NCBI GenBank assembly: GCA_964592475.1
Contig: CAZQEZ010000076.1
Coordinates: forward strand, 1-21,576
Direction of reading: 5' to 3'
From: an uncultured Roseivirgaceae bacterium
GTDB taxonomy: Bacteria; Bacteroidota; Bacteroidia; Cytophagales; Cyclobacteriaceae
DNA length: 21,576 bases
A program made the position numbers and the translations under genes. The stretch's first letter is position 1. Every line of letters begins with the position of its first letter. Shown here one piece after another: positions 932 to 19,398 of this stretch. The notes under the pieces were generated by a model. The model made no database searches. It saw only the letters and a program-made list of their open reading frames with translations, and was not told the DNA's origin.

Positions 932-1408
932 TTAACACATTATTTTCTGAAGATGGATCATTGGAGTATGAAAATATTTTGAGATTACCCAATTTAGAAT
1001 TTGAGTTTTATAATTTTGGAGTATTTTCGAACAATTCTGGCTCATGGCCCAATGGTCAAGAAAGAGGTGATTGGCAAAAAGATAAATTTCAGATGATCGT
1101 TGTGAAGGCTTCAGAGGAGGCCGATGTTTAGTAGCCGTACTGGTATCAATACCATCTTTCACACTAATAAATTCCACGCCTTTATCCCGGAAAAATGATA
1201 CAAGTTCTATTATATCTTTAAGGGACAGGCCCAATCGATCCTGTTTCCAAACCACCATCGTATCTCCCTTCCGTAATTGGGCAATCATTTTCTCTAGCTC
1301 CGGACGCGCTTTGCTTTGGATCTTTGGCGGGTGATGACCAAAAAACTGACTAACTATAAAATCACACCCAAAGATTCTATTAATACGTGATAACCGGCCA
1401 AACGCCAT
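932..1408 (-). pseudogene. Remnant of a serine recombinase (resolvase/invertase family). The N-terminal ~25 residues that carry the catalytic Ser are missing. The C-terminal half after ...GIDTST is out of frame or degraded.
   Basis: ...INRIFGCDFIVSQ...ARPELEKMIAQLRKGDTMVVWKQDRLGLSLKDIIELVSFFRDKGVEFISVKDGIDTST aligns with the resolvase catalytic-domain core (NRIF..., RP.L..LL..L..GD.LVV..LDRLGRS..D........GV.F.SL.E.IDT.T). There is no (I/L)GYARVST motif. Downstream sequence does not continue into the E-helix or HTH. Confidence 0.7.
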
Positions 1409-17315: not shown

Positions 17316-17408
17316 ATGGTCATTGCGATACATCCAACATATCATTTAAACATGCTTGCCAAAAGAATATTTGGTGATCAGGATTGTGTGCATGGCCCAA
17401 AGGAATAG
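17316..17408 (+). other. 30-codon ORF (MVIAIHPTYHLNMLAKRIFGDQDCVHGPKE) lying between the predicted promoter and terminator. Candidate small protein or sRNA.
   Basis: The ATG sits about 11-18 nt downstream of the predicted transcription start. I cannot assign it to a family. Confidence 0.2.
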
Positions 17409-17430
17409 GTTTACCATATTTGAATATATC

Positions 17431-17463
17431 AACCGGGCCCAAATTTTGAGTCCGGTTTTTTTA
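17431..17463 (+). terminator. Intrinsic-terminator-like hairpin AACCGG-(15 nt)-CCGGTT followed by TTTTTTT.
   Basis: 6-bp GC-containing stem followed directly by a 7-T run. No annotated plus-strand gene lies upstream of it. Confidence 0.4.
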
Positions 17464-17794
17464 TGCTTTTTTCCATTTAATTAAGTAAGTATAATGGAGA
17501 TTACTTTTAAGTAAAATAATGTATAAATAACAAGTTACGAACGAATGTATCTTGGTTCTGTGATTACTGGATTTTTTTAGGCCGGTTCAATAGAGTAAGT
17601 CCGAGACAAATGTTGTAGTAATTTGACCAAGTGAAATTGAAGATATTTAAAAATATTTTGTTTGGCCATAGCCGGGCAAAATCGAGGGAAAGACTTGATT
17701 TACAGTACCTGACCAGGGTTTCAGTAAGGCCCGGTAGTGCCGGCTCTTTGGGTTACGGTATGCTGACTGACTTTAGGTTGTTTCTCCACCACCT

Positions 17795-17828
17795 TGCAGG
17801 TCGGGGGTTCGAATCCCTCTTCGTCATA
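17795..17828 (+). tRNA. Orphan tRNA 3' half: T-arm GGGGG-TTCGAAT-CCCTC plus the 3' acceptor strand TTCGTCA. I find no complementary 5' acceptor or D-arm upstream.
   Basis: Canonical GGTTCGAATCC T-loop. A search up to 100 nt upstream found no TGACGAA-like 5' strand. Confidence 0.35.
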
Positions 17829-17868
17829 AGCGAATAGCTCAGTTGGTTAGAGCGGCAAGCTTTTCATT
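17828..17868 (+). tRNA. tRNA 5' half: acceptor AAGCGAA, 8-9 TA, D-arm GCTCAGTTGGTTAGAGC, and an anticodon-like stem-loop GCAA/GCTTTTCA/TTGC. It is fused directly to the next T-arm with no variable region, so the unit is too short to be an intact tRNA.
   Basis: The D-arm is of the class-I Lys/Glu type. The anticodon stem is only 4 bp with an 8-nt loop. The 5' acceptor does not pair with CATCCTC downstream. Confidence 0.35.
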
Positions 17869-17893
17869 GCAGGTTCGAATCCTGTCATCCTCA
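17869..17893 (+). tRNA. tRNA 3' half: T-arm GCAGG-TTCGAAT-CCTGT, 3' acceptor strand CATCCTC and discriminator A. It is the perfect complement of the tRNA-Leu 5' acceptor that begins 3 nt downstream.
   Basis: CATCCTC-A-CTA-GAGGATG. A73 is the Leu identity discriminator. Confidence 0.45.
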
Positions 17894-17896
17894 CTA

Positions 17897-17940
17897 GAGG
17901 ATGTGGCGGAATGGTATACGCGTTGGATTCAGGTTCCAAT
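17897..17940 (+). tRNA. tRNA-Leu(CAG) 5' half, positions 1-43: acceptor GAGGATG, 8-9 TG, 3-bp class-II D-stem GCG/CGC, D-loop GAATGGTATA, anticodon stem TTGGA/TCCAA and loop TTCAGGT. No variable arm or T-arm follows.
   Basis: The layout and anticodon loop are colinear with E. coli tRNA-Leu(CAG) (UG-GCG-GAAUUGGUAGA-CGC-G-...-UUCAGGU-...). Downstream sequence (TTGATCATGAAGACGGCC...) contains no T-loop. Confidence 0.45.
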
Positions 17941-18294
17941 TGATCATGAAGACGGCCAACTTCTAAAAAAGGCCACCAGAAAAGTAAGGGTAATCCCGCC
18001 CGCTGGTTTAATGTGAAGCCTGGCTTTCATTTTACTAGTGTAAAAAGCGGCTTAGCGGCTTCGAAAGTTCGGGGATTTCGCAGGTGTACCTTGTTTGCAT
18101 TGTTGTACCCTGTTTTTGCTCTTTTCGGCTACGGTCGCAAACAGCGAAAATAATTTGCAATCAATCCAAGCGAGAGGAATTTGCTTAACCGAATTTCCGC
18201 CGTAAGCGGTGGCTGGTTTACCTTTTACTTTTTCTTTAAATTGAATTATTGGCCCAATAATTATAAAATTGATTGTTTTATTAAAAATTATCTT

Positions 18295-19398
18295 ATGATG
18301 AAAAGAGTGAGAATTAATTCGGGTTGGGTAGGCCTGGTTTTTCAGAGCAATGAATATAAAAAAGTTATCACTGCCGGAAAGCACTGGGTTTCGATGTTTG
18401 CCACTGTGCGATTGTACAATATGGCTTCCACCTTTATACCTCCGGTCGAGCTAAATCTTTTGTTGAAGGATGAGGCGCTGGCTGATTTGCTAATCGTACT
18501 GGATGTGAAGGATAACCAAATAGCGTTACAATATGCAGATGGCGTATTTGTGAAGGTGCTGAAACCTGGTAGGCATGTGTATTGGAAAGGAGTAGTTGAT
18601 TACAAATTTAATACTTATGACTTGAATGAGCTGATGGTACCCAAAACACTTGATCGTAGCCTTTTGAGTAGGCCTGAAGTTATTGAATTTATCAGAATTT
18701 ATGTGATTAGTAGTTTTGAAAAGGGCCTGTTATATGTAGATGGTAATTTCAATAATACATTGGATCCCGGAACCTACTATGTTTGGAATAACAACCTGAA
18801 TGTACATTTGTACAAAGCTGACTTGAGACAACAACAAATGGAAGTTTCAGGACAGGAAATGTTGACTAAAGACAAAGCTGCTGTTAGAATCAACTTTTTT
18901 GCTTTGTATAAAATTGTTGATATCGTGAAAGCTTTGGCTGAAAATAGCAACTATGTACAACAATTGTATGTTTTGATGCAACTTGCATTGCGAGAATTTG
19001 TAGGAATGTACACTTTAGATGAATTGCTGGAAAAGCGTGAATCCATTGCCGAGTATGTATTGAAAACTTTGAGTGAAAAAGCAGACAGGCTGGGTGTAAA
19101 TCTACTCGACTGCGGTGTAAGGGATATTATACTGCCGGGAGATGTAAAAGAAATCATGAGTCAGGTGCTGGTGGCTGAGAAAAAAGCTCAGGCAAGCGTA
19201 ATCACCAGAAGGGAAGAAACTGCTTCGGTGAGGAGCATGCTCAACAGCGCAAAATTGATGGATGAAAACCCAATGCTTTGGAAGCTGAAAGAGATGGAGT
19301 ACGTGGAAAAAATCGCGGACAAAATCAATACCATCAGCTTGTCTGGTGGCAACCAGGTGCTGGATCAATTACGTGATATATTTACTTCAGGAAAATAA
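18295..19398 (+). CDS. SPFH/band-7 domain protein (slipin-like). An N-terminal degenerate SPFH-like segment is followed by a well-conserved SPFH domain.
   Basis: 368 aa from MMKRVRINSG. GQEMLTKDKAAVRINFFALYKIVD...LALREFVGMYTLDELLEKRESI...LGVNLLDCGVRDIILPGDVKEIM..AEKKAQA is the SPFH signature. The N-terminal VRINSGWVGLVFQSNEYKKVITAGKHWV resembles an SPFH domain start. An upstream in-frame start at 18181 is possible but less likely. Confidence 0.8.
   Translation: MMKRVRINSGWVGLVFQSNEYKKVITAGKHWVSMFATVRLYNMASTFIPPVELNLLLKDEALADLLIVLDVKDNQIALQYADGVFVKVLKPGRHVYWKGVVDYKFNTYDLNELMVPKTLDRSLLSRPEVIEFIRIYVISSFEKGLLYVDGNFNNTLDPGTYYVWNNNLNVHLYKADLRQQQMEVSGQEMLTKDKAAVRINFFALYKIVDIVKALAENSNYVQQLYVLMQLALREFVGMYTLDELLEKRESIAEYVLKTLSEKADRLGVNLLDCGVRDIILPGDVKEIMSQVLVAEKKAQASVITRREETASVRSMLNSAKLMDENPMLWKLKEMEYVEKIADKINTISLSGGNQVLDQLRDIFTSGK

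Follow-up and report, generated by a model that had tools for sequence, protein, structure and literature searches.

Circularly permuted tRNA genes of Cyanidioschyzon merolae and of some other algae and archaea give rise to decoding tRNAs through a circular intermediate that depends on a bulge-helix-bulge (BHB) structure, and they have a fixed anticodon identity. Among bacterial RNAs, the Ro60-linked, tRNA-like YrlA shares operons with RtcB, and in some of its members RNase P cuts a 7-bp acceptor stem (PMC4201824; Wang et al. 2018, bioRxiv 10.1101/312249). In its passage on the subject, the same preprint relays a prediction by Burroughs and Aravind (2016) of a 'band 7-associated tRNA', or b7a-tRNA, beside Band-7 and RtcB, and mentions that YrlA-like RNAs occasionally adjoin Band-7; by that account neither the b7a-tRNA nor the association of YrlA with Band-7 has experimental validation. 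Here we describe a locus of this general kind in a 21,576-nt contig from an uncultured Roseivirgaceae bacterium (CAZQEZ010000076.1, assembly GCA_964592475.1; the whole stretch is called the window below). Our reading, to which we give a probability of about 0.72, is that ~17640-17975 on the + strand is a conserved structured RNA with two permuted tRNA-like domains, that it is the cognate partner of the SPFH/Band-7 protein encoded downstream, and that it is a tRNA mimic.

A first-pass annotation of this contig had seen here a run of tRNA halves out of order, with a candidate circularly permuted tRNA-Leu(CAG) gene or, more mundanely, a decayed tRNA array. It is partly supported: its topological insight was right, a permuted tRNA that decodes is very unlikely, and the reading as junk stands refuted.

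Architecture of the RNA

The order T arm, closed acceptor-like hairpin, D arm is present twice at 17793-17939, and in both modules the elements are spaced exactly as in a tRNA. Shuffled sequence is expected to yield 0.00 matches to the T-loop/D-arm/T-loop pattern. The region had been parsed as four tRNA modules (A to D), and these lie essentially where they had been placed; our parse of 17500-18200 bears out every element listed, and the sequence reads, as had been said, without a T arm after module D. A re-parse of the region as colinear tRNAs by standard finders, which the first-pass annotation had named as a sign of misread arms, did not come about: ARAGORN called 0 tRNA and 0 tmRNA genes in the whole window, and Rfam models at their gathering scores gave 0 matches in the window. 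The elements are as follows.

~17640-17975, + strand: whole conserved RNA, ~350 nt, comprising the tRNA-like core, a 5′ domain and a pseudoknot
17640-17792, + strand: 5′ domain, with its 5′ boundary approximate, from an alignment of 55 relatives
17712-17735, + strand: hairpin P-I of the 5′ domain (RNAalifold)
17737-17761, + strand: hairpin P-II of the 5′ domain (RNAalifold)
17759-17765, + strand: UAUGCUG box of the 5′ domain, family-wide
17788-17793, + strand: CCACCA, in the 5′ domain
17793-17859, + strand: module 1, tRNA-like, permuted (opened) at the anticodon loop; matches YrlA below the gathering score; helices 1-4 covary
17793-17797 with 17855-17859, + strand: closing stem CTTGC/GCAAG of module 1, the anticodon-stem analogue
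17798-17802, + strand: AGGTC, 5 nt, the variable-loop analogue of module 1
17803-17819, + strand: T arm 1
17820-17834, + strand: acceptor-like hairpin 1, TTCGT-CATAA-GCGAA, 5 bp including one G-U
17835-17836, + strand: U8-A9 of module 1, the TA that precedes D arm 1
17837-17853, + strand: D arm 1
17860-17868, + strand: linker CTTTTCATT, in the variable-loop place of module 2; across the family its sequence is variable and its length 8-18 nt
17869-17939, + strand: module 2, tRNA-like, permuted (opened) at the junction of anticodon stem and variable loop; helices 5-8 covary
17869-17885, + strand: T arm 2
17886-17903, + strand: acceptor-like hairpin 2, CATCCTC-ACTA-GAGGATG, 7/7 pairs
17904-17905, + strand: U8-G9 of module 2, the TG that precedes D arm 2
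17906-17921, + strand: D arm 2, class-II type, with a 3-bp stem
17923-17939, + strand: anticodon-like hairpin of module 2, TTGGA-TTCAGGT-TCCAA (loop UUCAGGU, triplet CAG)
17948-17974, + strand: H-type pseudoknot 3′ of module 2
17948-17951 with 17960-17963, + strand: pseudoknot stem S1, GAAG with CTTC
17954-17957 with 17971-17974, + strand: pseudoknot stem S2, GGCC with GGCC
17964-17970, + strand: A-rich loop of the pseudoknot

Read in this way, module 1 has the topology of YrlA, that is, a T arm, a closed acceptor-like hairpin and a D arm shut by the anticodon-stem analogue, and module 2 combines a T arm, a 7-bp closed acceptor and a D arm with a complete anticodon stem-loop. The complementarity claimed for the acceptor strands of C and D holds (CATCCTC/GAGGATG, 7/7), and this helix (helix 6) is conserved and covaries among relatives.

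The alignment of 55 relatives gives the 5′ domain a common content: a GGGUUUCNGUAUAGCCC-type hairpin, a second hairpin and the UAUGCUG box. On the 13 type-A relatives, which are the closest to the window, RNAalifold places 18 pairs in this domain, 11 of them with compensatory changes. A hammerhead identity considered for CUGAUGAG in the 5′ domain was rejected, there being no GAAA box and no Rfam match.

The pseudoknot was scored by a constrained motif search against shuffles because loop lengths vary and MAFFT registers are therefore unusable. The motif occurs in 51 of 57 relatives, versus 11.2 ± 3.1 (maximum 20) in 100 shuffles, and its S2 helix is built from more than 15 distinct complementary sequences. 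An alternative pairing of the module 2 acceptor with sequence beyond the pseudoknot appeared in a relative (L093) and not in the window, L055 or L090, and was judged coincidental.

Relatives, covariation and the anticodon-like loop

Relatives were sought by several routes. The tdh protein encoded on the other side of the upstream spacer led to seven near-identical metagenome contigs whose intergenic region, at 99.3-99.9% identity, was too close to inform. Genomes, one per species, were scanned for a T-loop, 12-19 nt, a D arm, 15-45 nt and a T-loop; most matches returned were ordinary tandem tRNAs, and among the matches listed at least nine Bacteroidota genome loci had the short second gap typical of the window. 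These come from three Chitinophagaceae metagenome-assembled genomes (MAGs), Ferruginibacter, Paraflavitalea pollutisoli, Pedobacter sp. N23S346, Schleiferiaceae, Flavobacteriales and one Bacteroidetes MAG, and all nine have the full two-module architecture, ~170 nt of conserved upstream sequence and the downstream pseudoknot. The Paraflavitalea (strain H1-2-19X) and Pedobacter sources are isolates. A profile of the Band-7 proteins retrieved 80 metagenome loci; where enough upstream DNA is present, nearly every locus has a pair of T-loops, spaced 57-72 nt, between positions -330 and -630 relative to the Band-7 start. The two-module architecture lies ahead of a Band-7 homologue in ~60 metagenome loci. 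The search of viral contigs with the Band-7 profile returned no relatives.

A family covariance model, R1, was built from a 47-sequence alignment of the core and run on 90 sources (the window, the nine genome loci and the 80 metagenome loci). It scores 97-142 bits in 58 of the 90; its weak matches, at 20-58 bits, are ordinary tRNA pairs in adjoining arrays.

Some loci (L135, L142, L148, L152, L158, L183; L147, L157; L136, L194, L134, L162) depart from this architecture: there are forms in which another anticodon-like hairpin, AUGGACUnAAAAUCCAU, comes after the first, forms that have three T arms, and apparent single-module forms that score lower with R1. Separately, the pattern scan matched three proteobacterial loci (L047, L052 and L108, in Rhizobacter, Arenimonas and Thiobacillus) where a tRNA-like unit with a GAAA/GCAA-type tetraloop instead of an anticodon loop comes after a T arm and a short hairpin. 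This unit may, from its sequence, be another kind of tRNA mimic.

Covariation was evaluated by setting the 47-sequence MAFFT alignment of the core against the eight-helix structure, with helix partners slid by 1-3 columns as controls. Standard pairs form in 94.2% of alignment cells (38-47% in the slid controls), 36 of the 41 pairs show double-sided changes, and the covariation score is 0.74 versus 0.08-0.17 in the slid controls; the observed values were reached by 0 of 500 shuffles. Helices 1-4 (module 1) are 90-100% paired, with compensatory changes, and helices 5-8 (module 2) are 85-100% paired. Compensatory changes extend to all pairs of the two acceptor-like hairpins, the closing stem and the anticodon-like stem. 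Conservation and covariation in more than 50 related loci hold for the permuted order, the 3′ side before the 5′ side with acceptor strands paired across a short loop; this order had been stressed for C-D and is true of both units, not of C-D alone.

Selection within the lineage was evaluated by comparing the window with a closely related contig (L208; contig CAXDTP010000252.1 of GCA_963992285.1). Differences per 100 nt number 6.2 in the tdh-side spacer, 2.7 in the 5′ domain, 1.3 in the tRNA-like core and 2.8 in the spacer from the pseudoknot to the Band-7 start. The core has only two differences, both structure-neutral, one in the loop of hairpin 1 (17827) and one that turns a C-G into a U-G pair in hairpin 2 (17890). 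By this sequence comparison, the core is under purifying selection within the lineage.

These data bear directly on the possibility that the region is a functionless set of decayed or scrambled tandem tRNA genes, or of remnants of integrase attachment (att) sites. At least one gene fragment in the window (a partial resolvase) and the tRNA arrays often found near relatives would suit such an origin, which is nevertheless refuted by the compensatory changes in all eight helices across 47 sequences, acceptor-like hairpins included, and further because those hairpins would be meaningless spacer in a decayed array, yet covary. Synteny with Band-7 is moreover conserved across Bacteroidota families, the core diverges less than the flanking spacer, and no integrase recurs among the neighbours of related loci.

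The anticodon-like loop keeps its 7-nt size, with U33 and a purine at 37, among orthologues, but the triplet differs: at the orthologous position we counted UUU 10 times, GUU 8, UAG 5, and CAG, GAG, CAA and GAA 3 times each, with GUA, GAU, CAU, UCG and others bringing the number of different triplets to 20. The triplet tends to go with the type of D arm, in an imperfect correlation: UUU and GUU almost always occur with a UAGCUCA-type D arm, and class-II-like D arms accompany only Leu-, Tyr- or Phe-like and a few other triplets.

The first-pass annotation's central proposal was that C-D is a circularly permuted tRNA-Leu(CAG) gene, which would mature by circularisation or two-piece assembly into a decoding tRNA. 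It drew on the perfect 7-bp acceptor hairpin followed by A, and tRNA spacing is indeed exact throughout (65/66, 7/8-9/10, 25/26/27); the RNA ligase RtcB is a frequent neighbour in relatives, and RNase P cleaves the Mycobacterium smegmatis YrlA, whose acceptor stem has 7 bp and to which CCA is added (PMC4201824). We nevertheless consider such a gene very unlikely. Against a decoding tRNA-Leu, the anticodon-like triplet differs between orthologues (UUU, GUU and UAG each outnumber CAG), CCA is not encoded, RtcB is absent from the window locus, and the unit is embedded in a larger, Band-7-tied RNA between a conserved 5′ domain and the pseudoknot. Bacteria are not known to have the splicing endonuclease that algal permuted tRNAs require. 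The long variable arm that had been proposed, TTCAT with ATGAA, holds for the window itself, where 17861-17867 can pair with 17946-17952 (7 bp including one G-U; ATGAA lies at 17946-17950, one position before the 17947-17951 first given). As a family feature it fails: across 53 relatives the mean complementary run between the linker and the downstream flank is 4.25, versus 4.15 in shuffles.

Gene neighbourhood and proposed role

The gene that follows the RNA is the constant of the locus.

18295-19398, + strand: SPFH/Band-7 gene, 366-367 aa, with no evident membrane segment (Pfam Band_7, 1e-31)

In the window it lies 320 nt downstream of the RNA on the same strand. A same-strand Band-7/SPFH gene of ~367 aa follows the RNA in all eight of the nine genome loci that are long enough, and metagenome loci with sufficient upstream DNA have a homologue 330-630 nt downstream in the same orientation. 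Searches with PADLOC and NCBIfam place the Band-7 protein in no named defence or equivalog family. An SPFH gene has been reported within the Pseudomonas aeruginosa rtc locus (PMC13086221).

RtcB was found in four genome loci, and of 53 related loci 34 have it after Band-7 in the same orientation; it is a frequent, not an obligatory, feature of the locus. Ahead of the RNA, 18 loci have an AAA ATPase and 15 an RNaseH-like gene (PF04308); a divergently oriented WYL regulator (WYL-WCX in the genome loci) occurs in 20, and the RlaP 'RNA repair pathway' nucleotidyltransferase in six. The window and L208 have only the RNA-Band-7 pair, amid housekeeping genes. Many loci are adjoined by arrays of 2-23 tRNA genes, mostly just upstream and on the same strand (for example L159 4315-8700, L157 440-2390, L131 357-2512, L160 2360-3767 and L149 2623-3757), rich in Lys-UUU, Asn-GUU, Asp, His, Tyr, Gln, Arg-ACG and Phe; no such array lies in the window.

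From the gene context and the literature above, we infer that the RNA acts as a tRNA mimic, whether cofactor or bait, in a response to tRNA or RNA damage. It would be either a free non-coding RNA (ncRNA) or processed from the leader of the Band-7 transcript, and would have as its cognate partner the soluble SPFH/Band-7 protein whose gene lies directly downstream; the two form, in most relatives, an operon-like unit with RtcB and other RNA-repair or conflict genes. To the SPFH scaffold and tRNA-acting enzymes, or else to toxins that cut tRNA, the RNA probably offers elbows shaped like those of a tRNA and an anticodon loop that looks genuine. As cofactor, bait or sensor in the tRNA-damage response it would parallel the supposed work of YrlA with Ro60 and RtcB, and it would not be a translating tRNA.

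Several points weigh against this reading. RtcB was not found in the window or within ±10 kb in L208, so the repair link of the window RNA comes solely from homology. No sigma-70-type promoter and no terminator could be clearly placed around the RNA in the window. The 123.9 bits that R1 gives the window come from a model whose seed alignment contains the window sequence.

The same-strand linkage also suits another function: a cis-acting 5′ leader that would control expression of Band-7 (and RtcB), for example by sensing tRNA-acting enzymes or by being cut by a tRNA nuclease, with no part in a trans-acting ribonucleoprotein. The RNA is always on the strand of Band-7 and 330-630 nt upstream of it, no terminator-like site lies between 17975 and 18295, and the spacer from pseudoknot to Band-7 is constrained too, at 2.8 differences per 100 nt. 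The distance to the start codon, above 300 nt, is however long for a direct translational switch, and YrlA works as an RNA of its own even though it is encoded within the rsr-rtcBA operon (PMC4201824). We hold a purely cis-acting leader to be unlikely; it and a tRNA mimic that partners Band-7 are not mutually exclusive.

For the tRNA mimic, a role as bait or sensor for anticodon nucleases is attractive because the loop varies with lineage, the D-arm type tends to follow the triplet, and tRNA arrays adjoin many of the loci. A specific form of it is that module 2 is a programmable bait that copies a threatened tRNA or, more radically, a reserve unit convertible to a usable tRNA; we regard this as improbable. 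As bait, the anticodon stem-loop and D arm of module 2 would copy whichever tRNA of the lineage is threatened by anticodon nucleases (Lys-UUU, Asn-GUU, Leu, Tyr or others), and the cut bait could be sensed and resealed by an SPFH-RtcB module. As reserve, the action of RNase P, CCA addition and ligation by RtcB could yield a two-piece or re-joined tRNA when cellular tRNAs are destroyed.

Some other features of the window were noted. The tdh-RNA spacer contains, at ~17433-17470 (+), a terminator-like hairpin and T run, CAACCGGGCCCAAATTTTGAGTCCGGTTTTTTTAT; this region drew weak matches to L10/L20 leaders, and no + strand gene ends there. A hairpin at 17597-17635 (+), GUAAGUCCGAGAC...AAUUUGACCAAG, was tried as a mini Y RNA and dropped, having three differences in L208 and being unseen in other relatives; the resemblance of its GUCCGA/UUGACC to the Ro-binding helix of metazoan Y RNAs (GGUCCGA/UUGACC) is probably chance. 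A 110-aa open reading frame (ORF) at 18052-18384 (-), which overlaps the RNA-to-Band-7 spacer and the Band-7 start and is called as a gene on JGI contigs, has no Pfam match and is probably spurious; antisense ORFs within Band-7 recur in many loci, with the same explanation. At 932-1408 (-) an ORF matches the resolvase N-terminal domain only partly (profile positions 47-109 of 145) and is likely a gene fragment or mobile-element remnant.

Comparison with known systems

The family has no Rfam entry and is absent from PADLOC. In a permissive, sub-threshold Rfam scan of 17400-18300, the best match was YrlA (RF02553) at 17795-17858, with 41.6 bits (E 1.2e-7; gathering score 69). The match spans model positions 23-86 of 114, which are the closing stem, T arm, closed acceptor hairpin and D arm; positions 1-22 and 87-114, the Ro-binding helix, are unmatched in the window. 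At the gathering score, YrlA was matched neither in the window nor in nine relatives. The Rfam tRNA model stays below its gathering score of 29 (26.6 bits at 17897-17964 and 24.9 bits at 17835-17885), and module 2 of some relatives exceeds it (L093, L096, L055 and L090). The resemblance of the element to tRNA is of the permuted kind.

This YrlA match, with the same T-arm, acceptor-stem, D-arm topology, raises the possibility that this is a true Y RNA that binds Ro60, with its rsr gene at another place in the genome. The score falls well below the gathering score, the Ro-binding helix is unmatched, and the GNCGAAN0-1G motif has no match on the + strand of 17401-18100. By Pfam, TROVE (Ro60/rsr) is absent from the ORFs of the window and from L208 within ±10 kb, and it is not among the families matched by at least two of 88 large ORFs from the related loci, so it does not recur in the 80 related loci. 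A Ro60-binding Y RNA is accordingly most improbable here.

The first-pass annotation had stated that it knew of no permuted tRNA genes in bacteria, which overlooks the YrlA-type Y RNAs (PMC4201824). Module 1 has the same permuted order as YrlA (anticodon-stem analogue, variable loop, T arm, closed acceptor stem, D arm) and the same conserved T-loop and D-loop bases, and the M. smegmatis YrlA, like module 2, has a 7-bp acceptor stem (PMC4201824). The window RNA differs in having no Ro60/TROVE partner, GNCGAA motif or Ro-binding terminal helix, in scoring below the Rfam gathering score, and in adding a second module whose anticodon stem-loop is intact, together with a 5′ domain of another kind and a 3′ pseudoknot; the protein that partners it is SPFH/Band-7.

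Algal and archaeal permuted tRNA genes share with the window RNA a 3′ half that precedes the 5′ half and acceptor strands joined by a short loop. The window family differs in having no conserved helix that joins the ends (4.25 versus 4.15, as above; no search specific to BHB was made), in its varying triplet, and in that a larger RNA surrounds the unit. Two-piece (permuted) tmRNA likewise combines a permuted tRNA-like domain with pseudoknots in a bacterial RNA. The window RNA, in contrast, has D arms and no tag reading frame, ARAGORN calls no tmRNA, and the Rfam tmRNA_permuted model gives 11.6 bits in the window against a gathering score of 47.

The b7a-tRNA, as far as the preprint relays it, is matched in that the window RNA adjoins a Band-7/SPFH gene and fits the description of a tRNA-resembling ncRNA; the absence of RtcB from the window neighbourhood is a difference. 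On that relayed description, the window RNA is likely a b7a-tRNA, the kind predicted in 2016, and it is related to YrlA.

What looked like tRNA debris thus becomes a well-supported member of a widespread RNA family, for which there are now a structural model of eight helices plus a pseudoknot, a covariance model, a defined partner protein and ~60 members. Its lineage-changing anticodon-like loop and the adjoining tRNA arrays lead to testable predictions on how SPFH and RtcB handle tRNA damage, and the bait or reserve function, if true, would give bacteria an RNA-based immunity or repair device of a new kind. With this family, conserved circularly permuted tRNA-like genes in bacteria extend beyond the Ro60-linked YrlA.

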